Positions 2,045 through 48,429 of a stretch of 64,000 nucleotides of DNA are shown one piece after another. Origin of the DNA: Somniosus microcephalus (taxonomy: Eukaryota); NCBI GenBank assembly GCA_052327205.1, contig CM126207.1, positions 165,726,001-165,790,000 on the forward strand, in the 5' to 3' direction. Below the pieces are notes generated by a model, which saw nothing but the letters and a program-made list of their open reading frames with translations, had not been told where the DNA came from and made no database searches. The stretch's first letter is position 1; each line of letters starts with the position of its first letter. The position numbers were made by a program, and so were the translations under genes.

Positions 2045-2075
2045 GTCAGAAGCATAGTGCAACCTCTACCTACAC

Positions 2076-19136: not shown

Positions 19137-19331
19137 CCTTGCCACTCCAGGAGCCACGTGGCCTCGTCTCCCGGAATAGTGTGGTTTTCTTGCAGGAAGC
19201 ACACCACATACTTTCCGTCCCGAAGGACCGAAAGGTTATTAAATCTGCGGCGAGCCTCCCTGCTGCCATTGATGTTGAGGCTGGCTATGGTTGTCTTCAT
19301 ATCAGAAGCATAGTGCAACCTCTACCTACAC

Positions 19332-21475: not shown

Positions 21476-22505
21476 TATGGGGTGCTTTTTTCAAAAAAGA
21501 GCTGTGCTCACCCCAAGTCACAAGCCTTAAGATATTTAAGAATGACTTCTGGTTCTTTTTGAAGTCCTCTATTTGAGCAGAGGGAGCTGTTTAAAATGAA
21601 GGCAAACCTCGCCCTTTATTCATTGAAACTGGGAGATAGGCCTTCTCCCCTCTGCTCAACAGGCAATTAATTAATAGATGGAAAGGAGGTGCCTCTTGAG
21701 AGAGAGGTATAGAGAGACAAAGAGAGGGAGAGAGGGTGGTGGGAAGGAGGGAGCCCGCAAGGGCAGGTATGCCACTCAGGATGGAGGGCGGGTGGGTGTC
21801 GGAAGGGGTGCACCCTCCGATGGAAAAACAACGTCTCGGAATGGTGTTCTTCTGGCAGGGGGAGAAGATGTCTTCGCCTGGGAAAGCTGGAGAATGCCCA
21901 GGCTCAGTCCCACACCAGGTCTTAACGATGTTTGATGGAATAAAAGACTTCGCCTAGGCAGCTCCAGCTGTCCCAGGCCAGGCAATAGAAGGGGGTGTTT
22001 GATAGTGGTGTGTGTGGCCTAGTATTCTACAAGAGCCACACACACACACAGACACCCCTTGGTGTTCTGGCCAGTCTTCTTTCCTCCCCCCCACCTACAA
22101 TACAAAGTCTTTTGGAGAGTGCACCAAATAACACCCACCTGCTGATGTTCATTTGGAGATGTTATCCTTCCCTCCTTCCAAGCAGTTGATGGTGGGTGTT
22201 GGTTGTTGCTTCTCTCCCCTCTCTCCCTCTCCTGGAATGGAGGCCAATTTGGGGAGGCAGTGGTGGAAAGGCCTCTCCTCTGGTAGATGTTGGCCTCCTT
22301 TTTCCCTCTCCTCACCTCTGTCTTCTCTCTCCAGGCACCTCAGTAGTCGCTGTTGTGGTAGTGGTGGTCTGTGGTTTTTCCTTCTTCTCCTCCTCTCTCT
22401 GGTCAAGGAGACCACCACGTTCCACTCTCCTTCAGCTCCAACCAGCAGCACAGAGAGCAAGGCAGTGAATGAATAAAGCTGGGTCGGTCCAGTCCCTGTC
22501 TTGTC
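20339..22505. repeat. 2167-bp direct repeat, copy 1 (ORF1 N-terminal part + 5'UTR)
   Basis: Matches 27505-29671 at offset 7166 at both ends; roughly 15-20 substitutions counted by eye. Confidence 0.93.
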
Positions 22506-22567
22506 CTCTTTTTATAAACCCAAAAATAAACCCTTAAACAAATAAACCCTTTAAATGACCCGATTAA

Positions 22568-25500: not shown

Positions 25501-26467
25501 GACGGGACTCCAGGTCGAGCACCTCCTTCTCCAACTGCCCGACCCGGGCCTCCCGCCTCTTGGTCGACCCCTTCGCGTACTCCTGACAGAAGAGATGGAT
25601 GTGAGCCTTGCCCACATCCCACCATAGCCTCAAGGAGGGGAAGCCCCCCTGCTTCCTTCTCCAGCCGGCCCAGAACCGACCGAACGAATCCCGGAACCGC
25701 GCGTCCTCCAGCAGCAGGTTGTTAAAGTGCCAGTACGCGGACCCCCCCCCGGCGCGCGGCGGCACGAGCTCCGCCCACACCAGGTGGTGGTCCGTGCACG
25801 GCACCGGCCGCACGGAAGCCGCCGGAACGCAGGAGACGTACGCCCGGGAAATGTAGAGGCGGTCGATCCTGGACGCTCCTCCCCCAGACCTCACAAAAGT
25901 GAAGGCGCTGGAGTCGGGATGGATATTACGCCAGACGTCCACCAAGTCGAGGGACCCGACCAGGTCCCTCAGCTTCCCCATCGCCGCTGGGCATGGCTGG
26001 GTACCCGTGCGGTCCCTCGCCTCGAGGGTACAATTAAAATCCCCCCCGAGGATGACGCACTCGCCCGCGTCGATGGAGCCCAAAAGAGTGGACACTTCTT
26101 CAAAGAAGCGCGCTTGCTGCGCACCAGCCTGAGGGGCGTACACGTTCACTAGATGGAACGGCACGCCCCCCAGGCGAACAGTGACCTGGAGCAAGCGGCC
26201 CGGCACGAGCTCCTTGACCCCCAAGATCTCCGGCTGAAAATGCGGGGCCAACAAGATAGCCACCCCACTGGAAACACTGGAGAGGTGACTCATGTTGACC
26301 CCTCCTTGCCACTCCAGGAGCCACGTGGCCTCGTCTCCCGGAACGGTGTGGGTTTCTTGCAGGAAGCACACCGCATACTTCCCGTCCCGAAGGACCGAAA
26401 AGTTATTAAATCTGCGGCTAGCCTCCCTGCTGCCGTTGACGTTGAGGCTGGCTATGTTTATCTTCAT
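22568..26467 (-). CDS. Tx1-clade ORF2 polyprotein (APE endonuclease, reverse transcriptase, C-terminal CCHC zinc finger), 1299 aa, uninterrupted
   Basis: SLNVNG, FLQETH, GGDFNC, SRIDRLY, TDHH (EN); KSPGLDG, NWRPVSLL, DQEKAF, GVRQGCPMSG, AYADD, YLG (RT); CLFCGLEESVFHVYVEC. Confidence 0.96.
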   Translation of the reverse strand: MKINIASLNVNGSREASRRFNNFSVLRDGKYAVCFLQETHTVPGDEATWLLEWQGGVNMSHLSSVSSGVAILLAPHFQPEILGVKELVPGRLLQVTVRLGGVPFHLVNVYAPQAGAQQARFFEEVSTLLGSIDAGECVILGGDFNCTLEARDRTGTQPCPAAMGKLRDLVGSLDLVDVWRNIHPDSSAFTFVRSGGGASRIDRLYISRAYVSCVPAASVRPVPCTDHHLVWAELVPPRAGGGSAYWHFNNLLLEDARFRDSFGRFWAGWRRKQGGFPSLRLWWDVGKAHIHLFCQEYAKGSTKRREARVGQLEKEVLDLESRLGQVAEDPALRLAYEEKKGALKDLRLVGSRGAYVRSRIQFLRVLDRGSPFFYSLEKRRGVRKQLLELLADDGSPVSDPEGIRAETRAYYGALFSPDPSSEEARRVLWEDLPKVGLEGAEKLDAPLSLEELSGALRQLSRGKSPGLDGLTVEFHRAFWGILGGDYVRVLGECLATGEMPLSWRRALIVLLPKRGDLRLLKNWRPVSLLSTDYKIFARAMSVRLGTVLAHMIHPDQSYTVPGRTIHDNIHLVRDLVHHSQRAGLSVAFLSLDQEKAFERVDHEYLFGTLRAFGFGTHFVARIRLLYAAAECLIKVNGSLTAPLRFGRGVRQGCPMSGQLYAICVEPFLRLLRKRLAGLALQGPGVEVVLSAYADDVLLMVTDPVDLRRMRECQQIYSDASSARINWGKCSGLLVGQWQVDSLPEEFRPFAWSTTHLLYLGVYLSPAEDAWPANWHELEAKVTARLGRWTGLLRVLSYRGRALVINQLVAAMLWYRLVTLIPPPAFVAKIQKKLVDFFWNNRIHWVAAAVLSLPLREGGQALVCLRTQAATFRLQTLQRYLYVENPPRWRALVTYFFRQLHGLNYDMQLLFLEVGSRRASLQELPVFYQELLWVWNSVASRRSSPPSGMAAVLREPLFRNPHLRVREFGRLAERRAVPGRVTRVGDLLDGGGAGWMAPEELARRMSWGNVRLAVDAIEAVKARLRPGAARCIEAAQARGAIPPGLTPVWTEFHIGALPQSSPRGLVPHNLSRLEETPSVPFHSARRGFLYGMLLHTFHFAIFACRPDTPWRAVLPSGGGGGPQWGALYAGVFPCSIGDLAWRVLHRAVPCNRFLSRFTDSRAACLFCGLEESVFHVYVECGRLQPLFHYLKGLLLKFWLHFSPTLLIYGHPVRRGAGRSEDLLVGLLLGLAKKAINWSRQRAAEGVVRPDCLPLFRGHVRGRVALEMEHAVSAGELELFRDRWAPRGLECVIDLRGQILI

Positions 26468-26497
26468 TTCAGAAGCACAACCAACCCCTACTTAAAC

Positions 26498-28641
26498 CTA
26501 ACGGGGGAAGGGAGGGCGGCCGCTAGCCGACCGCCACTCCCTTAGCAGCCCGGTGAGGAATGCCCGGAACCGACACAGCTCGGACGGGCTCACGCCCGTG
26601 TCCGCACCCATGGTCTTGTAGGCGACGCGGGCCGACCCGATGAGCAGCGCCAGCCCCGACCATCTGTCGAGGGCCTGCTGGGTCCAGCGGCGACCCTGGC
26701 TCGTGGCCACAAATTCCCGGAGCTCCCTGATGGGAATAAGAACGAGGGGGGTCCCGGCGAGGGGCGCGAGGTCATCCATCGCCTCGTCGGCGACGGACTC
26801 TAAGTCCTCCTCCGCCCCCACCACCGAGTCCCCGTCCTCCTCCGGGGGGTCGCCACCGGCGGCCGAACCGTCCACCACGCAATGCACATCGGGCGGCCCG
26901 GCCGCGACAGCCGGCCCCGCCTCCGCCCGGATCCCACCCCCAGGATCGGTAGCGGAGGATTCCCCCCCGGGCTCCTCTAGGGGGGCCGGGCCAGCAGGCG
27001 GCGGCGGTTCGGAGATCCCCTCCGCCCCAGGCACCGGAACGGCCGGAGAGATCGGAGAATACAAAAACCGGACCTCCTCCAAGTCGCCCGGCGCCGGAGA
27101 CACAGACCGAGGGCCCTCCTCAGCGATGCCACTGGCCTCCGACCCAGCAGACGGGGGAAAATTCTGACACACCTCGACGAGGTCGAGCAGCACCTGGGAA
27201 AAATCCGGGTCGTTCTGGGCGAGCTCATCCTCAGACGACTCGCCCGACCCGGTCCCCTGGCCGCCCGACCCGTCGAGGGGCAATGCCACCAGCAATGGCT
27301 CAATAACCGCCGTGGGTTGTTCCGCGACCCCCCCCACGGGCAGGGTCTCGTCCCCATCCCCGGGAGGCACGAGCTGGGCAGACGCTTCTGCCTCAGCCTC
27401 CCCAGGGACAGGCGACCCCTGCCGTTCGCCCGTAATGGTGTTAGCGGTGGGGTGGGGCGCAGTGCCCGCGGCGGGCGACGACTCCCCCTGACCGGAGGGA
27501 CCTTCCTCCTCCCGGTCCTCCTCCTCTTCCAGGGGGTCACACCTTCTTTCTAGCGCGGAGGGAGCGAGGGAGACCTCCATGTCTGCAGAGGCCTCCTCCT
27601 CTGCTCCATCTGGCGGAGCAGGTTTGTCGGGTACTTCGGGCACGAGCCCGGCCGCAGGAATTGGCATTTCCGCTACGGCGGTTGTGGCCACGGGCTCAGG
27701 CACGAGGACCCTCCCGCCCTCGTCTGCCCCGACCAAATCCGCAAGGAGGGCGGGTGTCAGGGGCTCTAAGTTTAGGGGCCAGCCCTCCACCGGGGGACCC
27801 GCCCTGAGGTGTTTCATCTTACGCCGTTCCCTCCTTCCGCCCGGACGGGCTCCCTCCCCCCCGTCGGAGGCCCTGGTGGCGTCGGCCTCCGACGTCGACC
27901 GAGCATCAGTGGCTCCCGACGCACGGAGTGATCAGTGGGGGGAGCGGCGGCAGCGCCAGCCTCAGCCAAACCAGACGATCTGGCAGCATTGGAGGCGGGG
28001 CAGTATTTTCTGATGTGCCCCACCTCCTTGCAGGCGTGGCACCGCACACCGTCCGACATCCAGAAGACATGATAGGCGGTCCCCTCGTGGAGGATGATGA
28101 AAGCCCCATCGTTGTCCTCCTCCTGCGCCAGCTGGATAAAATGCTGGCGCCGGAAGGAGAAAACGTGGTGAAGGCTGGCCACATGGAAGCCGAGTGAGAT
28201 GGGTGTAAACCCCGACCTCACCTCCCCAAGATGGCATAAGTGGGGGAGGAGGAGCTCACCAGGTACAAAGGGCAGGAGGTTGGAAATAACCACCCTCTGC
28301 GCGGCGGCCTCGAGGGTGTCCACCGGCAGGAAGGTCCCGCCCACGGTGAGCCCCTTGGTGACGGCCACGGACACCGCCCGCTCCGACCTCAGGAAGAACA
28401 CAGCCTTCCCGTACATTTTTGAGGTGGCGAGGATGGTTGAAGGGCCGACAACCCCAGCCATGGCCTTTACACACGCCTCAATTGTCATTGTGGAGTGGGT
28501 GTAGCTCTTCACCCCAAGCTTTTTAGTTATTAAAGAGAAAGGTGACGGGGCCGCAGAAGCAACGGGAGCAGCCGTGGCTGTGGCTGCCACCGCCACATAT
28601 GACCTAGCCGGCCCCGCCACTGGCGAAGAAGTAGACGCCAT
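26498..28641 (-). pseudogene. Tx1 ORF1 of copy D, split by the same 1-bp deletion (near 27933) as copy C
   Basis: ORFs 27814-28641 (275 aa) and 26498-27817 (439 aa); GGA TCT of copy B reads GA TCA here. Confidence 0.88.
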
Positions 28642-29671
28642 TATGGGGTGCTTTTTTCAAAAAAGAGCTGCGCTCACCCCAAGTCACAAGCCTTAAGATA
28701 TTTAAGAATGACTTCTGGTTCTTTTTGAAGTCCTCTATTTGAGCAGAGGGAGCTGTTTAAAATGAAGGCAAACCTCGCCCTTTATTCATTGAAACTGGGA
28801 GATAGGCCTTCTCCCCTCTGCTCAACAGGCAATTAATTAATAGATGGAAAGGAGGTGCCTCTTGAGAGAGAGGTATAGAGAGACAAAGAGAGGGAGAGAG
28901 GGTGGTGGGAAGGAGGGAGCCCGCAAGGGCAGGTATGCCACTCAGGATGGAGGGCGGGTGGGTGTCGGAAGGGGTGCACCCTCCGATGGAAAAACAACGT
29001 CTCGGAATGGTGTTCTTCTGGCAGGGGGAGAAGATGTCTTCGCCTGGGAAAGCTGGAGAATGCCCAGGCTCAGTCCCACACCAGGTCTTAACGATGTTTG
29101 ATGGAATAAAAGACTTCGCCTAGGCAGCTCCAGCTGTCCCAGGCCAGGCAATAGAAGGGGGTGTTTGATAGTGGTGTGTGTGGCCTAGTATTCTACAAGA
29201 GCCACACACACACACAGACACCCCTTGGTGTTCTGGCCGGTCTTCTTTCCTCCCCCCCACCTACAATACAAAGTCTTTTGGAGAGTGCACCAAATAACAC
29301 CCACCTGCTGATGTTCATTTGGAGATGTTATCCTTCCCTCCTTCCAAGCAGTTGATGGTGGGTGTTGGTTGTTGCTTCTCTCCCCTCTCTCCCTCTCCTG
29401 GAATGGAGGCCAATTTGGGGAGGCAGTGGTGGAAAGGCCTCTCCTCTGGTAGATGTTGGTCTCCTTTTTCCCTCTCCTCACCTCTGTCTTCTCTCTCCAG
29501 GCACCTCAGTAGTCGCTGTTGTGGTAGTGGTGGTCTGTGGTTTTTCCTTCTTCTCCTCCTCTCTCTGGTCAAGGAGACCACCACTTTCCACTTTCCTTCA
29601 GCTCCAACCAGCAGCACAGAGAGCAAGGCAGTGAATGAATAAAGCTGGGTCGGTCCAGTCCCTGTCTTGTC
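27505..29671. repeat. 2167-bp direct repeat, copy 2
   Basis: Near-identical to 20339-22505; similarity drops sharply below 27505. Confidence 0.93.
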
Positions 29672-30089
29672 TCTGTGCCTCTGGCCTCACCTGTTTGTTA
29701 TTAAAGTATTTTTCTCCTGTGTCTCATTTGAATAATTATGTCACGTGACCAATCAGGTCTGTATTTAAGCTTCCTGTTTCCTGTCCTCTTGGCTCAGTCC
29801 TGGGTTCGCCTGCCTGCAAGTAACAGCTCTTGCTGTGTCTCTGGCATTCTCGAATCTCTCTGTGTTTTCGAGTCTCAACTGAATCTCCTTTCGAGTGTTA
29901 CCATGTCTCTGTGTTTTCGAGTCTCAAGTGAATCTCCTTTCGAGTGTTACCCTGTTTCTATGTTCTCGAGTCCCAAGGAAGCATCTTTCGAGTTCTACCC
30001 GGTCTCGTGTCCTTGGATAGGTTTCCTGCGCTTGGGTCCACTACCGTAACCCTTACAAAACGGCCCCGTGAATGGACGTCCCCGTGACA
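29672..30089 (+). repeat. LTR-like repeat (possibly Gypsy-type) flanking the array
   Basis: CACGTG-CCAAT (29742-29753), TATTTAA (29762-29768), ends CGTGACA; TGTCACG at 29739 is its inverted complement; no TSD seen. Confidence 0.45.
29857..30003. repeat. 49-bp tandem repeat, ~3 units
   Basis: TGTGTTTTCGAGTCTCAA..TTTCGAGTGTTACC recurs at 29861, 29910 and (degenerate) 29959. Confidence 0.8.
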
Positions 30090-31774: not shown

Positions 31775-33396
31775 ATGTTACAGTAAAGGAGAAGGGCTTA
31801 GATCAACAGGATAGAATACAATTAGATAAAGAGGGGTCAAATAAACGATTGGCATCACTTAAGGAAGAAAAGTCACCCAGTCCGGAGGTGATGCATCCTA
31901 GGATTCTGAGAGAATTAACGGTGAAAAAAATGCGGCTCCAGCCATAATATTTCAATCCTTCTTGCATGTGACGGCAGAATTCTGGAAATGTGTAAATGTA
32001 TTACACCTGTCCAAAAAAGGGAGCGAGTTAAACCAGCTAACCATCAGCCAGTCAGCCTAACATGGGTAGTGGGGAAAATTATAGAGACAATAATCTGAGA
32101 CAAAATTAATTGTCACTTGGAAAAATATGGTTTAATAAACGAAAATCAACATGGATTTCTTAAAGATTAATCATGTCTGACTAAATTGATTGAGTTCTTT
32201 GATGAAATAACGGAGAAGATTAATGACGGTAATGCAGTTGAGGTAGTGTCTATGGACTTTCAGCAAAAATTTTATACATTACCACATAATCGACTTGTTG
32301 AAAAATTGAAGACCATTGGATTAAAGGTGCAGTGGCAGTGCGGATAAAAAATTGGCTAAGAGATGGAAAGCAGGGAGTAGTGGTGAACGGTTGCTTTTCA
32401 GACGGGAGGGAAGTGTACAGTGGTCACCCAAGGGTCGGTATTAGGACCATTGCTCTATTTGATACATATATTAATGACCTGAACTTTGTTATAGGGTCAT
32501 AATTTTAAAAATTTGCGGATTATTGAAAGCTTGTAAATGCAATAAAACATGAAGATCATAATACCAGACTTGAGGAGGATATAACATACTTTGGAAATAG
32601 GCAGGCACGAGGCAGATGACATTTAATGCAGAGATGTGAGAATTGATGCATTTTCGAGGGAAAACTGAGGAGGGGCAGTATAAACGCATTGGCACAATTT
32701 TAAATGTGGTGCAGGAACAGGGAGACTCAGGGTTTCACTTATAAATTTTTTGAAGGTGGCAGGACAAGTTGCTCAATCTGTGAAAAAATATTACAGGAAT
32801 GTATTTCTAAATAGAGGCATAGAATAGTAAACCAAAGACGTTATAGCAAAACTTTAGACATCACTGGTTAGACCTCATCTAAAGAATTGTGTACAATTCT
32901 CAGCTCTTTAGAAAGGATGTCAAGACATTGGAGAGGGTGCTGAGGAGATTTGCTGGAGTGATACCAGGAATGATGAAAATCAGTTATGTGGAGAGACTAG
33001 AGAAGCTGGGATTATTCTCCTTAGAGCAGAGAACGTTAAGGGGAGATGTACGAAAGATATTTAAAATTGAGGCGTTTTGATACAGTAGATAAGGAGAAAT
33101 TGTTTCCACTGTTAGAAGGATCAGAAGACGCAGACTCAAGATAATTTGTAAAAACGCCAGGGGGAGAAGGGGAGATTTCATTTTACTCAAAAAGTTGTCA
33201 TGATCTGGAAGACATTGCATGAAGGGGTGGTGGAAGCGGATTGAGTAATAACTTTCATAGGGAATTTGATACATTTTTGAAAAGGACAATATGTGCAGGG
33301 CAATAGATCAAGTGTATTGGAGCCGAACTATTTGGTAGCTCATTCGGGGAGCCGGTACAGGCACCATGGGCCAATTGGACTCCATCTGTGCTGTAT
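31775..33396 (+). mobile_element. Decayed CR1 LINE ORF2 (RT region to 3' end)
   Basis: KSPSPEVMHPRILREL, QHGF, QGSVLGP-like, LERVLRRFAGVIPG..LGLFSLEQR; many stops. Confidence 0.8.
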
Positions 33397-35026
33397 GAAA
33401 ATGCAAAACTCAGCAGCTAGCATTTACCGTTTGGAATAAAGAATTTCAACTGCAAAAAATGTGTGACAAAAGCTTGTGGTGCAACATATCCTACCCAACT
33501 AAGCGATGCTGAGAATAACACATATTCTAGTCGTGATCTGAGCTCAACACGCAAGACTTTCCATTAGGCTTTGCGAATGTCATCAGTTTACAGATATGGT
33601 ACACTAAATATGTATGAAAAATATTCTGTTTCAAACAAAAAATTTTGTTTGAATTTGATCAATGCCTTTTGAAGTTCTAAAAACTTCAAGAGTCTTTTGC
33701 TTTTCACCAGTAATAGAAGTCATTGCAATATGTACTTGGGAGGATATAATGCAAGGACCCTGAGTGAACTTTATAGAAACTGGGCTATTTCGACTTTAAA
33801 GAAGGCCCCTGAGAATGTATGTTACAGAAGTTCATCGTCAGTAATGATAAGCGACCGCAATATCCCTTGTTACCTACCGGGGCATTTGATATAAATCACT
33901 ACAGTAACATCTTCCACATCCTATTCTCTCCAAATCAATTGAGATTTAAAAATGACGTCCATGGTGAAACGTCATATGTTGGAATGTATCATTAACCGCG
34001 ATTTGTAAATAGAAATTCTCAATTGAAATTGTAACGAAGTGTGGTATTGACCTGGATAACGGTTGGAATGTCCGTGGGATTTCCGCCGATATTACCCTGC
34101 AATTACGCTGTGATATCGGTCAATAAACCGTGAAACTGATACACCATTTTCATGTTCCGAGTAGATACTAAAGGGATCATTTCAATTTCTGGCGCTAGGT
34201 TAAAACTTTTCTTAGCGACGTAGCACATAATGTTAGACACACGAGCTAAAGTGCCTGATCTGCGATGATTGTAAAGTGCAATTTTACTCCAACGGTTTGT
34301 TAAATGTCCAGGATACCCTACTTTTTACAACCAGTCTCACGTATTTTCCAGGCTGAGCGTGTCTCACAATGACACTGTTTATGTCCAGTATGCTCTCGAG
34401 ATAACTCAGAAGCTGTCTGAAGAGACCAGAGAAAATGACTAATGTCCATAGCCCAAAAATGTTCTCAGCTTTGTAAAAGTTTCGCGGAAATAAATTGTAA
34501 TATCTACAGAGTTTTTTCCAGCGGTTTTCCCATAATCGAACCGTGCTATCAAGTCAGGTAATTGGGAGACTATGCCCCCAATCCATGGGCTGTGCTCACT
34601 TCCAAAACGTGTTTGTTACATGATTCAACCCGACAGATAGGGTCTTTACGAATCAAGCAATGATTTGCAGGTTAACAATGCACCGAGTAAACCGATACTG
34701 CAGCACAATTAGCTCCACAGATATGCAATATTTGTCCTTCGTGGCAGGTGAAGGAAAGATGAATTATTGACTTTCTAGCTCATTTACACATTTATTAAGA
34801 TATACATACAACCTCCCGGTTCCTGTTAGCATTTCTGCTAAGAGCAACAACCGCAGAACTTATTCTAAAGGTCATGAATTTCTCCATTTCGCAATTAGAA
34901 GTAACGTGATATCTGCCGTCACAGATAAGTATGAGATTATATTGGATACACAGCCACCCATTCCAAATCTGCATCCATTGCACTGTCGTTCGCAACCTGT
35001 GATCGACCGTATTTACGTTGCCCGAT

Positions 35027-35081
35027 ATGTTTATGAGTCGGTCATTTTGGGGCATGTATTTCCTGTACATTTCTTACCCAG
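35027..35081 (+). pseudogene. Ig-superfamily receptor gene, leader exon
   Basis: ATG 35027 MFMSRSFWGMYFLYISYP then G/GTAAGC phase-1 donor, in phase with the V exon. Confidence 0.6.
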
Positions 35082-35431
35082 GTAAGCTTTTATTTTTGTT
35101 ATTAAATATTAACCTTTCCTGTAGAAGATATAACACAGGAAGTCGATCTTATGAGTTAATGTACACCGGAACAATGTTTTTGCTGGTTTAATTTAATATA
35201 ATTTTTTCATGTAATGTGTTCTTTGAAGGAAGGAAAATATCTGTTTGAGAAAGGTAACGTTATTATGATCATTCCAAGCGAAAACCCTTTCAGCAACTGG
35301 AGAATAGCCTTATAGGAGTTACATTCAATTGCTAATGTATCAATGAACTGGACGCACAATGTTAATTGGCGGTGCAGATCGTCTTCCCTTATTATGAATT
35401 ATTTAACACGATTGGCTTCTTTTGTTGATAG

Positions 35432-35742
35432 TTGCTGTTGACACTTTAGGTAAGTTGACTGCGGGCATTGTACAAATGGAGGCGCTCAGAGGTACAAATT
35501 CTACTTTGCAATGCCCTTTCCTCTTCGACTTCGACCATTCAAACGTAGACGTGCACTGGTGGAGAGAGGGTAAGGATACCATCCTGCAAGAAGATAGCAG
35601 AAAGCTGTTTGAAGTAATGAAAGGCGGCGCCAACCTTCACCAATGATTGTGAGGTTCCCGGACGCCGGAACATGTCGGTGTGTAGCCAAAGATCGGGATG
35701 AAACGGTTGGAAAATGAACTCGTCTAAAATTTGTTGCATATG
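35432..35742 (+). pseudogene. Ig V-set exon with pre-joined J-like segment; frameshift and stop
   Basis: Acceptor TTTTGTTGATAG; STLQCPF, VHWWREG; frameshift ~35641 to MIVRFPDAGTCRCVA; VGK*TRLKFV (GxGTxL with GGA>TGA); donor G/GTAAAT. Confidence 0.8.
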
Positions 35743-36568
35743 GTAAATGTCAGTTGAACTGGAATCGTGGTGTTTACTTGGTGTCCATATTAATACTGCG
35801 CTTAACAAGACATTCTAATAGGGAAATTCTCTGTTTATACAACAGTACAGCTTTCTACTTGTTTATAACGACACGGGCTCAAGAGTAAGGACACTTTCCC
35901 ACTTCCAGAGTCTTTGAAAAGTGTGACAACTGGCCTATATCAAGGTAAGTGAAATCAAGACTGGGTACTAAAATGTTTCGTTCTAATTTTAGCACTAAAT
36001 GTAAGGATGAAAATCTTGTGCTTATTTGAAATGTAATAAACGTTTAAAGACCCAGTGCTTTATTTTGAAAGAAAAGGATAGAAGATTTCCCATTCCGATT
36101 ATTTACGGGATCCAGATAAACTTCCTGAACCGCTGTTCAGTGGAACAGCCGAGACGTAGATGATAACACGGGAACCGTCGTGCAGACATCAACGCTAACA
36201 ACTTATATTTATATTGCATCTTTAACGTAATAAAACCCTTTCGGTCCAAAAGAAGAAAATGTTCGCCATGTAAAAACAGACCTCTGCCTGTATTATTGCA
36301 ACAATTCAAGCGCAACATGGTGCTTATAGATATTAATAATAATAAACCCAATGTTGGCAATCACTATTGTTAAATATAAAAGTGATAGGTGAATAACGAT
36401 GGGTAGGGAATTCGGAAAATAATGCCTCTAGCTGCAGTGCAGAAAACATTAAAATGGGCTCCAGTCAGGGCAAATAAACATTTTCGGTCCAACTACGTTG
36501 CCCTGACTAGGGTACCGGGTAAGGCAAACAAAGAGTTGATTGGTCCATTTTTGATTTTTTTTGTGTAG

Positions 36569-36874
36569 CTGTCCCCGCTCCCCTGAAGATTTTATGCACA
36601 CCATTCAAAGGGGCTTCATCTGTTTCGCTCAGACTCCAGTGCAGTACGGCTGCTTTTTATCCGAAGGACTTTAACCTCACCTGGCATAAAAATGGTACCA
36701 AAATTATGGCGGGATTTAGAACTGAACAGCAGACAAAGACAGAGGGTCTATATGAAAGTGTCAGCTCCTTAGAAGAGACTCAACCAATTGAGCGCGGCAC
36801 AGTTTATACCTGTAAAATATATCATGTTTCGCACTCGATTCCAGCAAATGTCAGCTACACTCTTGGCAACGAAG
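36569..36874 (+). pseudogene. Ig C1-set exon (open frame, phase 1-1)
   Basis: TTTTGTGTAG acceptor; LRLQCSTAAFYPKDFNLTWHKNG..GLYESVSSL..VYTCKIYHVS; GAAG/GTAATA donor; 306 nt. Confidence 0.88.
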
Positions 36875-37159
36875 GTAATATGATCGCGCATCTGCTACTT
36901 TTATGTTGTTTATTCCCAAGGGCATCAAGCTGCCATTGCAGACATCGGACAAATATAAGAAAGAGTGAGGTGTTCACTGCAACTGATTTCCATATGATTA
37001 TGCCATCTTCGAACACCACAATTAGCTCAGAAATGTGTGCAGCAATAATATAGCAGGGGTAATGTGACGAGAAGGATTCAACTAGCGAAACTTAATTTAA
37101 GGGAAGACTGCTAATGGAAGTTTAAACAGGCAAAATACCAACATGTATGGAGTGCTGAA

Positions 37160-37700
37160 AACAGAGGATGTACCTAACAGTGAAGAAGACTGCAGAAAAT
37201 TTCAAGACGATATGGACACCAAGGCAGATTTGGCAGAATCAACTCGGATGAAATTGCATGCAAAGTGGTATGATGTATTAACTTTTGGCAGCAGAAATGA
37301 AAGCGGGTATGCCCTAAATGTAAAATCATTCAAATCAATTAAATAAAACTCCGATTTAGGGTTCAGATTTTAGCAATGAGGACTTAGGGTAATGCTGAGC
37401 CGAAACACATCGACGGCTACACTGCATTCAGAATATTGTGTGTATATTTGGACAATTTACTTTCTGAAGAATGTCAAAAATATAGACACATACAAAATAT
37501 TTTTACTATGGTCGTATCAATGCTGTGGCATTTCAGTTAGAAAGGGAAACAAATAGAGAATGAGGGGCTATATATAACAAATTGAGATGATCGAGATTTT
37601 CAATGAGCTCGACCAGATACATTTAAAAAAAGCTATTTTCTGTTCAACGAATCGCTTACCCGATGGCATAAACTTAACATCATCACCAAAAGGAGAAAGG
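37160..37700 (+). mobile_element. Highly decayed CR1 LINE fragment
   Basis: NSEEDCRKFQDDMD..MKLHAKWYDVLTFG resembles the CR1 RT C-terminal region. Confidence 0.55.
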
Positions 37701-38757
37701 GAGTAGAAATTATTTATTTATAGCGACACCAAGTGTGATGTTCTCCACTGCTGTAAGGAGCAGGACGGTTCATAATTTTCAAGTGTCTCTTGATTCTCTC
37801 TCAATTCCAGCTAGTCTCAGCTAATCTGTTAACAAGAAATGCAATTTTACATCACACACCACAATGGGATCATTTTATATTCACAATAAACAATCTTCGA
37901 GTCCAGCTGAGGTATAAATATGATAGTTGCTTGCCACAACTACCTACTATATTCTCCTTTCTTAAACAAATCTTGATTTTAACCCTACTCAAATTAAAGA
38001 AGTGCCGCTACGGACCATCCACTGAAATTTCCGCGAAAGTACTCCTGCAGGACATAGAGGAATGACATGAAGTGCGACAAATGGCCTTCTTTATGACGTT
38101 AGGTCTGGTGGTCTGACAAACCCTATTTATACTGATCAAAAGTCATCTGAGTCACTTCCAAATTAGCTCTTGCAGCATATCAGATGCCTGAATAAATGTG
38201 CTTTAATTTGTACTATTGCACATTTAGCAGAAAGTTCATAAATGCGACTGATCTGAGAAATAGTAACTCCGAAAACAACAGCTGGAAGGTTCGTCATGGA
38301 AAAAATATGAAGACTTTTAAGCAGTTTACTCTTTTGGAACCAGGAAACGTTAGCAGGTTCTATTTCAATTTAATATTTATCGATTGTGTTCCATTAATTA
38401 GCTGTGATAATCTCTGTTCGATTTGTAAATGAGCTTTTAAAGATTTCTTGTGCTCATGGTGTCTAGCGACGTATTAATTATTCTCTTTTGATTTTATTTA
38501 TATTATCGCTAAAATAAATGAAGACAGACAATCTTTCCAAAGATTTGACGATTTCCTGACACATAACAATCAGAGGAAGTCTTGTCCCAATCTGCTTTAA
38601 TTTTAAAATAATTAAAGTTAAAGCAGTTCTGTCATACAAAACAGAAAGTTATATTCATAAAGCATTAAGTGGAAATTTTTTCATTAGTTGTTGGGAAGAA
38701 AAAATCTCATCCGATTAGTATGGCTTCTGGTAATCATTGATTACCTTATATAATTTC

Positions 38758-38875
38758 GATATTATCACGCTGTTATTCCATTCCACATGATTTATCGATC
38801 CACCGTGGGGATATTGGTAATTATTCTACTAATGATAATCACCCTCCACCACATTAAACCAGATAACTTCTACAG
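38758..38875 (+). pseudogene. Probable transmembrane exon of the Ig receptor gene
   Basis: HMIYRSTVGILVIILLMIITLHH hydrophobic stretch; strong donor CAG/GTAAG at 38875; acceptor AG appears damaged (TAATTTCGAT). Confidence 0.55.
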
Positions 38876-39149
38876 GTAAGATAATTGTATTCTTAAACAA
38901 CATTTGTCAATTGATAACATGGAAAGAGCACAAATGTTAATGAATTGGAGAGATTACTACTCAATAATAACATAATCATGAAAAGCCTGAAACTATGAGA
39001 ACCTCCAGGAAGTGAGATCAGGGCAGCAGTTTAATGCTGATTTAACAGAGCAGTTGAAATCGGCCTTCACTGTATTCTCAGTTCCTCAATGGGTCACGTC
39101 TTATATACAAAAAATGATACAGCAGAGAAAGCGGCAAATTCTGCCCATA

Positions 39150-39750
39150 GATCTGTTGCGGGCTCTTTAAAAATGCTATCCATTTACTCCCAGTCGTCTG
39201 CTCTTTTACCGCAGCCCTGTATTGGATCCCTTTTCAAGTATTTATCCAATTCCACCTTGAAAGTTACGATTGAATCTGCTTCCACTGCCCTTTTAGGCAA
39301 TGCATTCCACATCATAACAACTCGCTGCCTATAATTTCTCGTCATACCACACTGCTTCTTTTGCCAATTATGTAAAATCGTAATTACCTGGTTAACGACC
39401 CTCCTGCCAGTGGAAGAAGTTGCAACTCATGTACTAATTTTGAACACCTCTATTAAATCTCCCATTAGCACTCTCTGCTCTAAGAAGAATGAAGCTAGCT
39501 TCTTTAATCTCTCCACATAACTGAAGCCCCTCATCCCTGGTACCACATTCGCAAGCCTCGTCTGCCCCTTCTGCAAGGCCTTAGCATTCCGGCTAAAGTG
39601 TGGTGTCCAGAATTGTACATATTACTCCAGCTGAGACGCAACCAGTGATTTATAAAGTTTTAGTTTAACTTCCTTGCTTTTGTACTATATGCCTCTAGTT
39701 ATAAAGCCCATGATCCTGTATGATTTTTACCAGCTTCATCAACTGCTCCT
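39150..39750 (-). mobile_element. CR1 LINE 3' fragment
   Basis: Reverse complement gives CR1-type LEYxVQFW and LEKLxxFSLE segments. Confidence 0.65.
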
Positions 39751-40539
39751 GCCACACATCTTTCTCACAAATTCGCTGTGCACCATTCATAACATCCCAA
39801 TTTCTCTATTAAATTTCAGCCTTAACTTATTCTTGGTTTTCAATTATTCTGGACGGAACTCTTTCCAATGCCTAAATTCCATTTCAACTTACAATTCGCT
39901 TCAGGGCATATATTGGTCCAAACGTTCCACAGGGCTACGACCTTTCTTGCACTGTAGATTTGGGGGGTGCGAGTATCGGTGAATAGAATATAAACTTGCA
40001 GAAATTGCGAAAATGTTCATTTGTACCGTTTCCCTTGGAATTATCTTGGTGCCCCACCGATGTAAGGAATGGTGTTACTAGAATCTGATTAACAAACGCT
40101 CCCAAGCATGGGAGTTTGGCAAGGGCTCTCCTAAGTTTGCCGTTTCATTTGAGCAGGAGACTAGGTAAAGAGACCACGAAAAACGATGTACTTATGGTGG
40201 GACAGCGAGAGAGCTCGAGTGGAATATGAAGATCATAATTAAAAATCACATTTCATTGCGATTATACATAGCAATTTTGATTAACGGTTGAATTTAGTCT
40301 TTAACTCGATCTCCCAGGGAAAACCCCACCGGATGGCATGCACAGGGAGAAATGTCCAGAAATTCCTCTCGGGTGGTGGCGCAATATGTGCGGTATTGGA
40401 CCGATCCACTTTTAGACACAGCACCTTATATTCTGTTCCTTTGACTGCAATGGAATTGAATATCAGCTGCCGCGTGTAACAGGCAGCCGATCCGATACCC
40501 GCCATTTGGCGCTATCACCCGAGACGAATTTCTAGGCCT

Positions 40540-43350
40540 TTAGCTTAAGGTTTGGCCAACTTCAAGGAGATCAGACCGAGACTGCCTAAATTAAACAGGG
40601 CAATCTATTAATGTGTCAAAAGACAGAAGATCAGTGGGAGGTGTTCAAAAACGAATTTAGCGTGATATAGAACCAGTTTATACCATTATGGAGCGGTTTA
40701 TACGCCTAAAGAGTGACAAATCCCCCAGACCAGCTGTTTTTCACCCCAGGGTTTAAAAGGAAGTAGATGAGAGCATTGCAAAGGCCGGAAATATTATCGT
40801 ATACATTTGACGCGATTCAAGAACTGTTCCTTTAGATTGGAAAATTGAACATGTCACTCCGCTATTATAAGAACATAAGAACATAAGAAATAGGAGCAGG
40901 ATTAGGCCAATCTGCCCCTCGAGCCTGCTCTACCATTCAATAAGATCGTGGCTGATCTGATCCTAACCTCAAATTTTCTATCCCTCTCCACCCACCTGAA
41001 CCCATGTGATCTCCCGGGAGAGGCGAAAAACCAGATAAATAACCCAATGGCCAATTTGGGTGAAAAAATCTGGGAAATTCCTCTCTGACCCACCTAGGCG
41101 ATCGAAACTCGTCCAGGAGATCACTTTGTCCCTATATTTTCTACAGTACTTACCTTCTGTAAAGGCGATCTCCACCCCAGCCAGAAACAGGAATAAAACC
41201 ATCTCCTGAAATCTAACACAAAATTAGAACACAAGAAGTAGGAGCAGAACCAGGCTACACGGCCCCTGGGCCCACTCCACTACCCACAGGGCCATAACCA
41301 TTCCGAACCTAGACTCATGTCCAATTTCCTGCCCGCTCCCCATAACCCTTAATTCCCTTTACTTCTAGGAAACTATCTATTTCTGTTTTAAATGTATTTA
41401 ATGATGTAGCTTCCACAGCTTTCTGGGGCAGCAAATTCCACAAACCTATCACCCTCTGAGTGAAGAAGTTTCTCCTCATCTCAGTTTTGAAAGAGCAGCC
41501 CCTTATTCTAAGATGATGCCCCCTAGTTCTAGTTTCACCCATTATTGGGAACATCCTCACCGTATCCACCTGATCAAGCCACTTCGCAATCTTATATGTT
41601 TCAATAAGATCGCCTCTCATTCTTCTGAACTCCAATGAGTAGATTCCCAATCTACTCAACCTTTCCTCATATGACCACTCCCTCATCCCCGGGATTAACT
41701 GAGTGAACCTTCTTTGTACTGACTCGAGAGCAAGTATGTCTTTTCTTAAGTATGGACACCAAAACTGTATGCAGTATTCCAGGTGCGCTCTCACCAATAC
41801 CTTGTACAACTGCCGCAATACCTCCCTGTTTTTATATTCTATCCCCCTAGCAATAAAAGCCAACATTCCATTGGCCTTCTTGATCACTTGCTGCGCCTGC
41901 ATACGAACATTTTGAGTTTCGTGCACCAGGACCCCCAGATCCCTTTGTACTACAGTACTTTCCAGTTTCTTGCCATTAAGATAATAGAAAGTTGAGAGAG
42001 GGAACGCACGGTATTCTATACCAGTTAGGCTTACATCTCTTGTCGGAAAATTACTGGAGTCTCTAACTAAGGATAGAGTGACGATGTTCAGCTGATGACA
42101 TATTTGTAAAGGGCAATTGAAGCCTGACGAATCTGATTGAATTAGTTGAAGAAGTGACTGAAGTAGTAAACAATTAATGTCAATGGATGTTATTGATATG
42201 GACATTGAGAAGGCCTTCGATACAATCCTTCATAAGAGATTGCTAGCTAAATTGAAGCTCATGGAAAAGAGGACAAATTATTGACCTGGTTAGGAAATCG
42301 GTTGAGCGGCAGGAGAGAGAGAGCAGGATTCATCGGCAGATAATCTAATTGGCAGGATGTGATGAGTGGCATCCCACAGGAATCTGTGTTGGGTCCTCAA
42401 CTATTCACGACTTAGTTGACGGGATAGAGAGCCACATATCCAAGTTTTCCGATTACAAATAGATAATCGGGATTGTTATCAGTGTAGGTAGAAGCATAAC
42501 ATTACAACGGGATATTAATAGAATAAGTGCATGGGCAAAATTCTGGCAAATGTATTTCAAAATCGCTTAGTGTGAAGTCATACACTTTGGACCTTAAAAG
42601 GATAGAAGAGGGTAAATTCTAAATGGCGAAAAGCTCGAAGCAGTGGAGGCCAAATAGAATTAGGGGTCCATGTACATGGAGCATTAAAATGTCATGGAAT
42701 GGTACATAAAATCATAACGGCTAATGGAATGCTAATTTTTATATCTAGAGGACTAGAATACAAGGGGTTAGAATTCATGCTACAACCATACAAATCCCTG
42801 GTTAGACTACACCTGGAGAACTGTGTTCAGCTCTGGGAACCACATTTTAGGGATGACCAATTTGTCTTGGAGCGAGTGCAACGAAGATTTACCAGCATGA
42901 TACCTGGACTCCAAGGGTTAACTTACAAGGAGCGATTACTCAACATGGGTTTTATTCCGTGGAAATTAGAAGGTTAAGTGTTGATGTCATCGAAGATTTC
43001 AAGATATTATGCGGCACTGATAGGGCAGATAGAGAGAAAATATTTCCGCTGATTGAGATATCTAGGACTAGGGGATACAGCCAAAAATATAGAGCCAGGT
43101 TTTTCAAGAGTGAACTTAAGAAACACTTGTCAACGCAAAGGTTGGAAGATGTTTGTTATTCTGTTCTGCAAATGAGAGCTGATGCTGGTCCAATTGTTAG
43201 TTTTAAATCTGAAATTGATAGCTTGCTCATAACCAAAGGTATTAAGGCCCATGGGGCAAAGACACGTAAAGAATATTATGTCGCATGATCTCACCTGAGT
43301 GCCAGAACAGGCTCGAGGAGCTAAATGGCCTACTCTCTGTTTCCCCTGCG
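40540..43350 (+). mobile_element. Older CR1 LINE split by a younger antisense CR1
   Basis: GATTGGAAAATTGAACATGTCACTCC ends ~40868 and continues ~41985 with YIPVRLTSLVGKLLES; ORFs 42699-42977 and 42959-43288 give the CR1 C-terminus. Confidence 0.75.
40869..41984 (-). mobile_element. Younger CR1 LINE 3' fragment with extended double-tailed 3'UTR
   Basis: Open C-terminal ORF2 (YYLNGKKL..LEYCIQFW..MRRNFFTQRV) ending 41315; (TAAGAACA)n tail at 40869. Confidence 0.85.
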
Positions 43351-46300
43351 TTCTGCCATCTCCTGCCACTGGAGGTCAGGAGAACCTGCGTGAAATTATA
43401 GGACCTTTCTGTCATGAAATTTCAAATCAATTGTACACTGTTCTTAAAGTGAAAAAGTTTGTGGAAGAATAATCCACTGTCACTGATTTTGCCGTCAGTG
43501 GCAAAGGGATGATTCTCACCGTTCGTTCAGTTAACCGCTGCCCATAGAATTTACCTGGGTTTTTGAATGGCAACTTACGGTATTTAGAGATCATTTTCAG
43601 AGCAGTGCCCTCTAAAGGGTATATCGGTGGTATATGGGTCAAGCAACAGCGTGTCTCTTCAATCAGATTGAAGACTCCTAACTGAAGCACGCAGAATCAA
43701 AACAAGGAGGTATCAATTAGAATATTTAATTCAATCAACAATCACATACAGAAAGCGACATAAAGGGAGGGAAATAAATATGAGATTAAGAGAAAGAGAG
43801 AAAAGAGACGGAAAAAAGTTAAACAAATATTTTTTTATAAAAATCTCGAACAATAATTAATTCTGAAGGAATGAAACCCCACACTTATAAAATTAAATCC
43901 TCAGAGACAAAGAGTTTGTTTAGCAGTAATTAAGACTTATCATGCCGTTAAAGATTCTGTTATCCAGAGGCACAGCCCTAACTATTTCTGCTGTGTTACT
44001 TGGGTATGTCAGGCAAATTCTCGCCTTCATGCGTGTATATGTGAATTCTGTTGGCGAGGTAGAGGTGTAGCGAAGCCTATGGTTCCCTTCACCAATACAC
44101 CAAGATATCTCGAAATGAAGTGTGGAATAGAATCCCCGATATAGAGCGGATTTAAAAGATAATGAGTGCCACATTAATCAGACTAAACTAAATATTATAA
44201 ACGATTATAATAATAGACTTTTCAACAGGACGTAATTGGCAGAGTGAGGGAATCGCTGTTTGATTTGACTGTCTGAAATATACAACTAACAGAAGAGATC
44301 GATTATTTCCAGCCGATTGTATGCTGATGAAAGCCAGAGACCTAGAGTGTTCCAAGAATTCAGATGAAAAGGCAATACCAAAGTAGTTAAGAGAGTCACA
44401 GTTTACAACGCCACTGGTTAGGCTGGATCCTGGAAACGGCCGCGATACCATATGTCTTCAATGGGATATGGAATGCACACCAATGGTTGCAGAGAAACTG
44501 ATTTGTCCATAGTTAATAAAAAAGGACAGTCACGGACATTCTGCCAGCGTATGGAAGTTATGCACAATGTGATGCAAGAAGATTTAGATGGGTTTTCTTT
44601 TTATTCTCTATCAGCAAATGTTACTTTTCAGTAAACTGGCTGCTAATGTCACGCCTACACTGAAACGTATATAACAAAATCAGTACTTTAACTGAAAGAA
44701 AATTGATCCAATACATCATTACACTAAAATCAATATACAGCATACCTAAGGGGACTTTGTAACATAGTTACACGGTGAGTATTTTGCGAAGTGTAGTCAG
44801 AAAAGTGGATGACTACGAATAGATTTATGAAATTTCCAAGAAGTAAAAAAGGTAAATGTTAGAACTTCACAAGCCGAAGGGAACACCGCCTTGGAGACGT
44901 TCTCGTATCAATGTTACCCTATTACAGAGACGAGTGGCCTATGGTTTGGAAGCATTGCTATTTATGTGCAAGTAGGGATATAATGCATGTGTCGTTGTTG
45001 GTAAAGCTACAGAATCGTTGAATATTTGGCTAAGGCACACCTCCACGTAGATAAAATGGTATAATACCAGGTTTTTGAATGGCTGAATCTACAATAAATT
45101 TTCATTCAGCATAGTCAACAAGCAGTGCAGTGTTTAATTTCAAAATTGATGTCCCTGCGAGCAACATAGGTACAAATAGTGATGCATAGATTAAAACATT
45201 TAATAAGGGTGTGTCAAGGTATGTGGATTGATTGGGGAATGCCAATTTAAATATGCAGATTAGGTGTAAAAAGTTGAAAGGATGTAATGGGAACAACGTT
45301 ATTAATCAGCAAGTGTCTAGTCAGTAGTCCATCAAATGTTCTAAAATAGTAGGGTAATCATGAAATTTGTTTCCATTGGCATTATATGATTGATCTGACT
45401 GCCTGCGGATGCTACAGGGCAACTAGGTTCCATTTCCTCTCCTTTGAGCCCAGTGAACGCTTAACTCGTGCGCGCAAAATATATGATTAATTGTTAAGGC
45501 TCGTTGGGGGAAATTGTGACTTTTTGTGTTGTCGGAAAACGGACGGATTCATGGAAATAAAAATCGGGAGATATGTACAACGGACGGCTGAGTGGATAAC
45601 GCACATTTTACACTATCAACTCCCTCGGTGGCGAAACACATACTTGGACAGTTTGGGAGTAGGAAAGCTAGCCATCGCTAAAGTCTCATGAGGACATGTT
45701 TTCTAAGCGTGGCTTATGCTGGCTAGAGATTAGAACGTTGAGGGCTTATTTACTGGAACTGTTTAAAATGATCAAGTAATTCGCCAGTGCAGATAGAGAG
45801 CAGGTGCTATTTCCTCTTGTGGAGGAATCTAGAACCAGATAAGGTCTTAAAATCGTCAGACATGCCTGCAACGTTGTATCATGCGTTTTCGTTGTACTAT
45901 CGGTAAATGATTTGCCGTGTATTTCTAGTACTTCCTTTTTTAAGTGAAATTTGAAGCGTGATTTTTTTTCCTGTTTTATTATAGGACGGAAAGCCAGCTT
46001 AGCTAGAAAAAATATTGTGGCCTCACAACTGCCAGTACGTTGGACCATGTGTGAAAAGCCAATAGCTGCATACATCTAACCAGTTACTCAGCCAGCTATT
46101 CTGAGTGCACTGTATTGCAGTGTGTCGGTGCACAGAGGTTGGAGGGGGTGACAGCTAAAGAGCTGTATATTTCGAGGATTGACGGCCAGTTGTGAAGTGG
46201 CTTTGACGCGAAGAAACAGAACGAGATGCTATGGTAATGGAGAAGGCCTGAAATTGGACTTAAATAACTGCAGCTGAATTGTCTTTTGAAAACGATTTAC

Positions 46301-47090
46301 AAGTGCACTTTTTGCGAGGATTCTCCCGATCTCTTGCCTCGGAGATGAGGGAATCCACCGAGATACGGCATACTTCAGAAACTTAGCAAAAATGTTATCT
46401 TTAATATGAAATATCTTCCATATGTTTTCCTGCTAACTTATGATCAAATCAGAAGGTTTTTCCAATAAGTGAATGTCATAACATTTATTAAAATAAGATA
46501 GTGTAGGGACCCTTGTGTTTTTGTGACTATTGTAACTGTAATAAACTTGTCCAAATACCCGCAGCGAAATCGACCTGTGGAAAACCGTTGATAACTGTTC
46601 CTTTATATAAAACATTTCACTATTTTATATATTGGAATACCACTTCTGCTCCAATGTAATGTCATTCAATAAAACGAGCTGTGTTTTTTCCTGTTTTAAA
46701 TATCAACCACTGTTGGGGTCTATGTGAGAAACGCAAACAGGGTCGAACAAAACATCAAGTTTTACTGCTTTAAAAATGAAGACGCCTTGAAAATTTATCG
46801 GCAACAACTGGAATCCAATCGTGAACCCACAGAACACGAGTGCAATCACCAGGCGAATCGACGACGACAATTGGTAACAGCCGTTTTCGCAGTTTTTCTT
46901 TTTACCTTCCCCAGACGTTAGCGGAAAGTATGGTGATAGTCCAACGGGTGTGAAACCCTGGTTAATGACCGGTATGCCTTAATTTTTCTTGCAGGACCTC
47001 AATCTACCCAATTTTCCGTGGGTTTTCCTCCAATCTTCCGCCATAACATTGGTTGGCCGCACGTTGTACTCCTGGCTTGGTTTTCCTTTC

Positions 47091-48115
47091 ATAAGAACAT
47101 ATGAAATAGGAGCAGGGGTAGGTCATTTGGCCCCTGGAGCCTGCTATGCCATTTAATGAGTTCATAGCTGATCTGATCTTTGTCTCAGCTCCATTTCCCT
47201 GCCCCTCCCCATAAGCCTTCACTCACTTATTGTGCAAACATCTATCTACTTCAATATTAAATATATCCAATGACGCAGCTTCCACCGCTCTCTGGGGTAA
47301 AGAATTCCACACATCTACGACCCTCTGAAAGAAGAAATTCCTCCTCTAAATGGGCGACCCCTTATTCTGAAACTATGCCCCTATATCTAGATTGCCCCAT
47401 GAGGGGAAACATCTTCTCTGCATCTACCTGCTCAAGCTTTCTTCACTAGTCAACTCCATCATCTTTGGAATCAATTTCGTGAACCATCTCTGAACTGCCT
47501 CCAACGCAAGAATATCCCTCCTTAAATAAGGACACCAAAACTGTACGCAACACTCCAGGTGTGGTCTCACCAATAACGTGTACAGTTGTAGCAGCACTTC
47601 CCAGCGTTTATACTCCAAACCCCTTGCAATAAAGCCCAACATCCATTTGCCTTCCTGATTACTTGCTGTACCTGCATGCTAACATTTTGTCTTCCATGCA
47701 CAAGGGCCCCCAGGTCCGTCGGTACTGCAGCATTTTGTAATCGCTCTCCATTTAAATAATAATTTGCTATTTTATTTTTCCTACTGAAGTGGATAACCCC
47801 ACATTATGCTCCATCTGCCAAATGTTTGCCCACTCACTTAGCCAGCCTATATCCCTTCATAGGCTCATTGTGTCCTCTTCACAACTTGATTTCCCAACTC
47901 TCTTTGTATCATCAGTAATTTGGGTAACATTGCAGTCGGTCCCTTCATCCAAGTCATTCATATAGATTGTAAATAGCTCAGGCCCCAGCACTGATCCCTG
48001 TGGCACCCCATTAGTTATCTTTGCCAACCAGTAAATTACCCATTCATCCCGACTATGTTTTCTTTTATTTAGCCAAACCTCTATCCGTGCTAATATATTG
48101 CCCCAACCCCAAGCC
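47091..48115 (-). mobile_element. CR1 LINE 3' fragment
   Basis: GVPQGSVLGPELF..DDTK; LVRPHLECCVQFW; TAAGAACA tail. Confidence 0.85.
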
Positions 48116-48429
48116 ACCTGGTTTGATTTTCCTTTCCATTGAAGTCATTAATAAGAAAATGCTGCAGAATATACAATAGCCGGCCGATCTGCTATCGTAA
48201 TTTATACAGTCCAATATGGTAAAATTTCTCCAATGATGGAAAGATGGAAAGAAACCCCGGAGAAATATCTAAAATATTTGATTTCCGGTGGAGCTCAAGA
48301 GGTTTCTCTGATTTTACGCCAATGGTCGGGCACATAGTCGACAATACATAATTTATAACATCGCACCATTCATTAACGTTCAAACAATCTGAAAGGATAA
48401 CATTTACAGAGCGATTGAAATAAAACCTC

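Follow-up and report, generated by a model that had tools for sequence, protein, structure and literature searches.

What kind of immune receptor, if any, was once encoded by the four immunoglobulin (Ig)-type exons found between positions 35027 and 38875 of a 64,000-nucleotide stretch of the Somniosus microcephalus genome (assembly GCA_052327205.1, contig CM126207.1, positions 165,726,001 to 165,790,000; hereafter the window)? A first interpretation made from the letters alone (hereafter the sequence-only reading) described a broken gene with a germline-joined variable (VJ) domain, a C1-set domain and an Arg at the edge of the transmembrane (TM) segment, and placed it in a possibly undescribed activating receptor family. 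In the present analysis we find it probable, on the basis of sequence comparisons, that the gene is the dead remnant of a receptor gene of the likely activating type, from a large family of non-rearranging VJ-C1-TM proteins that occurs in chondrichthyans and is predicted to act as paired on/off immune receptors.

The leader, the one-exon V domain, the C1 domain and the Arg-bearing TM exon proposed in the sequence-only reading are all in place on the forward strand. The leader exon (35027-35081) starts with ATG and contains 18 codons plus one nucleotide before a GT donor in phase 1, and is 78-81% identical in DNA to the leaders of three paralogs (L022, L023 and L025). It is followed by the single-exon VJ domain (35432-35742), which is broken, by an open C1-set exon (36569-36874; phase 1 to phase 1, Pfam C1-set E 6.5e-11) and by a TM exon of the 'YRST' type (38761-38875), whose Arg codon lies at 38796-38798. 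The donors of the leader, V and C1 exons are all in phase 1, in agreement with the earlier description. The V exon of the intact paralog L022 is recognised as a Pfam V-set domain (E 1.5e-06), and the J-like G strand read in the window V is a family trait: of 34 open family V exons, 33 themselves encode a GxG motif in that strand. Recombination signal sequences, of which none had been noticed near V, stay at chance level, with two weak matches between 34500 and 39500, both upstream of the leader, versus 2.9 expected from 50 shuffles. A rearranging locus was rejected since these matches do not exceed chance.

The window gene is a true pseudogene. Its V exon has 311 nucleotides versus 312 in three of three close paralogs, which corresponds to a one-nucleotide deletion near 35641; the resulting frameshift yields a TGA at 35644, and at 35715 another TGA replaces the first glycine codon of the G strand, which is GGA in paralog L022. 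The frameshift and stop in V, next to an open C1 exon, had been recognised from the outset; that list was incomplete, a third lesion having been overlooked. The splice acceptor of the TM exon (38759-38760, forward strand) reads AT versus AG in paralog L103, an in-frame stop precedes the exon, and no alternative AG acceptor is present between 38718 and 38860. Because the acceptor is lost and no other AG precedes the membrane segment, canonical splicing-in of the TM exon is impossible, and therefore skipping of the V exon, which had been entertained as a rescue, cannot restore a membrane form. The gene belongs to a duplicated segment (32666-49932, forward strand) whose second copy lies 67.8-67.9 kb downstream with 96.8-96.9% identity; this duplicate (L021, a copy of at least 17 kb) carries the deletion, the G-strand stop and the lost acceptor. 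A contig from sequencing run X3, which covers 35104-37286, aligns across the V frameshift without an indel. As L021 shares all three lesions and the X3 contig agrees at the frameshift, an assembly error is unlikely, and we rejected an artefact as the explanation. The gene likely died before its local tandem duplication. The two copies differ by 10 nonsynonymous and no synonymous changes in 170 codons, and the open paralogs L023 and L025 by 11 nonsynonymous versus 2 synonymous, a comparison that does not discriminate on selection. The pseudogene itself is ordinary debris, adding only that one old Arg-type lineage appears extinct in this assembly, and the interest lies in its family.

The window C1 exon has at least 77 C1 matches in the genome, a lower bound obtained from 150 scored of 226 candidates, and these form three clusters. 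They comprise 36 matches at 162.7-166.3 Mb and 18 at 188.0-189.7 Mb of contig C6, with one more at 197 Mb, 20 at 14.8-16.4 Mb of contig C17, one on an unplaced contig and one outlier on contig C8, which falls outside the family tree. Of 73 ten-kb stretches surveyed (the window and L021-L092), 31 have an open V together with an open C1; 22 contain no V inside the stretch and the remainder have a broken V or C1. The gene birth and death postulated earlier is supported. TM exons were detected with a hidden Markov model, which missed exons found by a splice-aware scan, and a failure to find one within 10 kb does not amount to absence.

Several members depart from the common pattern. The C17 cluster is close in sequence to the genes at 188-189.7 Mb of C6 and contains identical inverted pairs, which may reflect a recent translocation or an assembly duplication. 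Two of its loci (L050 at 14.81 Mb and L051 at 15.29 Mb) carry a pair of C1 exons, separated by 2.8 kb, ahead of a single TM exon, a possible V-C1-C1 form. The open V exons at L023:2812-3120 and L025:2823-3131 are devoid of the F-strand cysteine at its usual place, as is the Heptranchias model P0004. A divergent subtype (L042, L062, L076 and the database models P0019 and P0021) shows a Trp-rich TM start and a Cys-rich juxtamembrane stretch, and its two database models are without an immunoreceptor tyrosine-based inhibitory motif (ITIM). Two C1-set exons 5 kb apart on C8 (L093, 143.44 Mb) lie outside the family tree.

Intact relatives are found in other cartilaginous fishes. The V domain of the nearest open paralog retrieves models of Heptranchias and Heterodontus; the Heptranchias models P0001 and P0004 have the order leader-V-C1-TM, a TM segment of the same 'YRS' kind and tails of 8 residues. 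The window C1 clade is joined to this TM type in Heptranchias XP_067853505.1 and XP_067853503.1, both with 8-residue tails, and in Scyliorhinus GCB66622.1, and the 'YRST' TM is conserved in models of Heptranchias, Scyliorhinus, Chiloscyllium and Mustelus. Because intact models (P0001, P0004 and P0023), which like the other intact 'YRST' orthologs are automatic database predictions, join the same TM type to C1, the window TM exon belongs to its C1, as the sequence-only reading had assumed. Heterodontus models P0002 and P0005 fall in the same ectodomain clade and have a neutral TM followed by 4 and 2 ITIM-like motifs, respectively, the build with 4 motifs being that of XP_067906072.1. The Heterodontus isoform X4 model P0003 skips C1 (V-TM-ITIM).

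A search with the full-length profile returned 54 proteins, of which 53 carry the species name of a shark, a ray or a chimaera, the remaining one being without a readable species name; as the search depends on shared words and on lengths of 123-660 residues, distant bony-vertebrate relatives may escape it. The best matches are members of the gene's own family and not ordinary B7 or Ig light-chain (IgL) genes. Their RefSeq labels, automatically assigned (e.g. XP_067853505.1, XP_067906072.1 and XP_042196356.1), are inconsistent: SIRPA-like, NCR3LG1-like, tapasin-related-like, IgL-like, CD276 homolog and MHC II-like. In the literature searched we found no description of this shark VJ-C1-TM family, the VJ-C1 gene lists of the PRARP, VJC1 and UrIg papers being those that could bear on its novelty, and no paper treating the variously named RefSeq chondrichthyan models as one family.

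The assignment to paired receptors is based on the distribution of Arg-bearing and ITIM-bearing forms. The C1 tree places the window gene in a clade of 12 rows (98/99) where Arg/short-tail forms stand beside neutral/ITIM ones. Another clade, of nine genes (100/99), unites the Arg-type L030, L032, L034, L043 and L049 with the neutral L026, L027, L028 and L033, and V identity across the two types amounts to 83-94%. ITIM-type exons lie behind L026, L027 and L028; none was found within the 10-20 kb covered behind L030, L032, L034 and L036. In a set of 27 database models, ITIMs are missing from 10 of 11 Arg forms, versus 6 of 16 others (p 0.008), and pooling with a second set gives 17 of 21 Arg forms versus 12 of 34 others (p 0.002). 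A tree of TM-exon DNA (155 columns) groups together eight Arg exons of the 'RST/RLV/RFV/RFA' kind (90/90), the C1 exons belonging to them being spread over four clades. This pattern is consistent with reshuffling of an old activating-type exon behind ectodomains held in common with inhibitory twins. The earlier idea of an activating receptor family stands in part: the window gene is built like the likely activating forms, and the family is paired, with neutral-TM/ITIM forms in the same ectodomain clades.

Some observations weigh against this interpretation. The second set alone, the 28 TM-bearing ones of 39 further models, scored with a slightly different Arg window, gives 7 of 10 Arg forms versus 6 of 18 others without ITIM (p 0.11), and since the rows are related and the gene models automatic, the p-values overstate. 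An Arg and an ITIM-like motif occur together in L023 and in 4 of 21 Arg-type models (P0159, P0201, P0212 and P0226), the grouping of Arg TM exons is not starred in the 155-column tree, and the four TM-bearing Callorhinchus models of the second set showed no Arg form. Each of the three 'YRST' TM exons detected in this genome belongs to a broken gene, leaving no intact copy of the subtype here. The TM Arg is not a perfect marker of the activating type. In L023 itself the TM exon near 5183 has AGA (Arg) versus GGA (Gly) in its twin L025, yet ITIM exons follow; this difference suggests a one-base switch state.

Such sporadic Arg residues in ITIM forms are also what might be expected if the proteins were ligands of the B7, B7-H6 or tapasin-related type instead of signalling receptors, the Arg being mere drift. 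The RefSeq names NCR3LG1-like, tapasin-related-like and CD276 homolog point in the same direction, as does the presence of PD-L1 among the weak matches of the V domain; PD-L1 and CD276 stand there among many weakly matched Ig folds, and the trees held no B7 rows. We regard ligands of this kind as very improbable in view of the ITIM-like motifs in most long-tailed members, the 'YRST' TM conserved across four shark genera and the almost invariant J-like G strand.

If the family indeed consists of paired receptors, a mechanism can be proposed. In the paired receptors SIRP, LILR and NITR the ITIM form inhibits, and the form with a charged TM activates via an adaptor with an immunoreceptor tyrosine-based activation motif (ITAM). 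By analogy, intact 'YRST' genes, whose products have almost no tail, would pair their TM-edge Arg with the Asp of an ITAM adaptor of the FcR-gamma or CD3-zeta type, and the neutral-TM twins would recruit SHP phosphatases through their ITIMs. The ITIM forms may then brake leukocyte activation upon binding of a self or foreign ligand; the Arg forms would activate via the ITAM adaptor and probably evolved against pathogen decoys of the inhibitory ligand. Duplication and exon exchange have likely maintained the similarity between twins. Two exons assigned to adaptors of the zeta/gamma family are present in the genome. A complex prediction that combined the TM of P0001 with the gamma-type adaptor exon in two copies gave a score of 0.04 and was used neither way. 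In two RNA runs of the same species (X4 and X5, of which 24% and 31% were read; tissue not stated) the window exons have at most trace depth and lack splice joints; the same holds at the open paralog L030, so that the runs are silent on expression.

The V domain offers a distinctive feature. In 21 family sequences the core Trp and the second Cys are separated by 41-44 residues, versus 52-62 in reference domains of the Ig, T-cell receptor (TCR), NCR3 and SIRP types. In an AlphaFold2 model of the L031 V domain (pLDDT 90.8) there are no strands between C and D. The top Foldseek matches of this model are VNAR domains at about 22% identity, SIRP appearing at rank 42. VIA-align gives NCAM Ig1 (Z 14.3, root-mean-square deviation 1.9, 93 residues aligned), VNAR (Z 13.8, deviation 2.2, 98 aligned) and NKp30 (Z 13.1), the rows within about 1 Z including NCAM, VNAR, single-chain Fv and CD79b; SIRP is absent from the 50 rows, which excludes nothing. 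The family V is short and VNAR-like, and the structure searches single out no parent family.

A V tree of 61 rows unites the family in a single clade (99/96) that has multi-V proteins of turtles as its sister group (96/89) and lies on the NCR3 side of a split (94/86) from Ig, TCR and SIRP. Approximately unbiased (AU) tests on a 39-row subset do not reject SIRP (p 0.166), IgL (p 0.07) or the VJ-C1 gene L108 (p 0.19) as sister. The phylogeny called for earlier against TCR/IgL, NKp30 and SIRP has delivered a single family clade, with SIRP, IgL and L108 all compatible as deep relatives under the AU tests. The turtle models P0054, P0092 and P0137, on contigs of 42-46 Mb, are multi-V with an Arg TM or tyrosine-motif tails; they come from a V-profile search of 50% representatives that was dominated by multi-Ig giants, 17 short matches being examined and 19 of its matches named.

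The genomic location bears on these relationships. A linkage with the major histocompatibility complex (MHC), raised in the sequence-only reading, was not supported: all 37 MHC class I matches are on contig C35 or the unplaced C272, and the family is on C6 and C17. CIAPIN1 is found at 158.1 Mb, CBFB at 195.0 Mb and one COX4 at 260 Mb of C6, three markers that we take to be on human 16q. SEP domains (an NSFL1C-type marker) are on C13 and C7 and PI31_N (a PSMF1-type marker) on C13, the paralog identity of each match being ambiguous; NSFL1C and PSMF1 are presumably the SIRP neighbours at human 20p13. The two C6 clusters sit among human-16q markers, away from MHC and from SIRP-neighbour markers. 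On the MHC contig C35, L109 and L119 (137.5 and 139.5 Mb) contain NCR3/NKp30-like single-exon VJ domains, and L109 has NKp30 as its top PDB match (E 4e-11). Elsewhere in the window, tandem GC-rich copies of long interspersed nuclear elements occupy 1-13000 and 19300-29700, with an open frame of 1307 amino acids (endonuclease/reverse transcriptase) at 22568-26491, and broken frames of long-terminal-repeat-element type (zinc knuckle, RNase H-like and integrase-like by motif reading) lie at 15087-18574.

The family could be a shorter, translocated chondrichthyan branch of SIRP. The combination of VJ, C1 and ITIM or charged TM is the logic of SIRP, automatic naming has labelled many RefSeq models SIRP-like, the full-length profile has SIRP-alpha as its third PDB match, a second C1 exon precedes the TM in L050 and L051, and the AU test does not reject a clade of family and SIRP. 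We nevertheless find this origin unlikely. A lungfish SIRP-type V, which matches PDB SIRP (6e-15), retrieves no family V in this genome, only two V exons on the MHC contig; its Trp-to-Cys spacing is 54 residues versus 41-44, the SIRP-neighbour-type markers are on C13 and C7 and not on C6 or C17, and the best V tree separates the two. Even less probable, to the point of being remote, is an identity with the described PRARP/VJC1 genes of chicken and Xenopus, despite the same VJ-C1 architecture. Several VJ-C1 genes are known in tetrapods, some of them with a linkage to MHC paralogous regions, according to PMC10751288. In this genome a separate gene on the MHC contig (L108, C35:135.81 Mb, 1339-2186) has a VJ exon closely followed by a C1 exon; its V resembles that of Ig light chains, and it is a candidate PRARP/VJC1-type gene distinct from the window family. 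With its spacing of 53 residues its V lies outside the family in the best tree, although the AU test allows the two to group, and the full-length profile matches are chondrichthyan throughout, save the one without a readable species name.

Returning to a chondrichthyan family of paired receptors, defined natural killer (NK) or myeloid paired receptors are few in cartilaginous fish, and dozens of genes with inhibitory- and activating-type twins would be candidates for checkpoints that tell self from non-self in the most ancient lineage to possess adaptive immunity. The VJ-C1 module is usually seen as what remains, near MHC, of the ancestor of the antigen receptors; it can expand at another locus into an array of innate-type receptors, and the short V suggests that loss of the region of the second complementarity-determining region (CDR2) occurred outside IgNAR too. 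A bolder and rather doubtful suggestion is that the family is a main germline-encoded on/off recognition system of shark NK or myeloid cells, with an antigen-receptor-type VJ plus C1 and a CDR2-less, VNAR-like V, derived from an early jawed-vertebrate 16q-equivalent locus outside the MHC paralogons, surviving as turtle multi-V receptors and lost in mammals.

How, then, does the family compare with known systems? NCR3/NKp30 is a non-rearranging VJ domain with a TM Arg. It is without C1, whereas the family has a C1-set exon, and the NCR3-like V exons are separate, on C35; identity with NCR3 was rejected on the C1 exon and the missing MHC linkage. Germline-joined IgL is without a TM exon, which the family orthologs have, and its V has C' and C'' strands; the IgL-type V exons of this genome (labelled by motif reading) show Trp-to-Cys spacings of 53-61 versus 41-44. 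IgL identity was rejected on these grounds, although the AU value given above does not reject sisterhood. The turtle proteins XP_037733860.1, XP_053904980.1 and XP_074865127.1, picked by the family's own profile, have short VJ domains and form the sister group mentioned above; one carries an Arg TM and two a neutral TM with tyrosine-motif tails, and they differ in having several V domains and no C1. UrIg and UrIg2 of elasmobranchs are, like the family, non-rearranging VJ plus C1 proteins, and UrIg2 ranks first among the PDB matches of the window C1 when scores are summed over three domains. According to PMC12227049, UrIg is a secreted protein with three C1 domains, UrIg2 of the nurse shark combines nine C1 domains with a TM, and both are linked to MHC or to the Ig/TCR complex. 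The family has one C1 and lies off the MHC contig, and UrIg identity was rejected for these reasons.

The activating form of SIRP uses a DAP12-binding Lys in its TM, and the family has a TM-edge Arg instead. As a whole SIRP has one V and two C1 domains, unlike the single C1 of the window gene and its orthologs, with L050 and L051 as exceptions; the family moreover has a short V, sits among human-16q and not 20p13 markers and counts more than 70 copies. At the sequence level it shares with SIRP a J-like V, a C1-set domain and paired inhibitory ITIM and charged-TM forms (for SIRP see PMC2785349 and PMC12975943). The NITRs of ray-finned fish are likewise clustered single-exon VJ receptors with ITIM and TM-Arg forms; bioRxiv 10.1101/2021.06.11.448072 notes, by citation, that evidence for NITRs is lacking in cartilaginous fish, places the holostean locus near runx1/DONSON and defines the second NITR domain as an I domain. 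That of the family is C1-set, and NITR identity was rejected on this point. The family is thus set apart from SIRP by domain number and synteny, and, as far as its motifs indicate, it would work like SIRP and NITRs.

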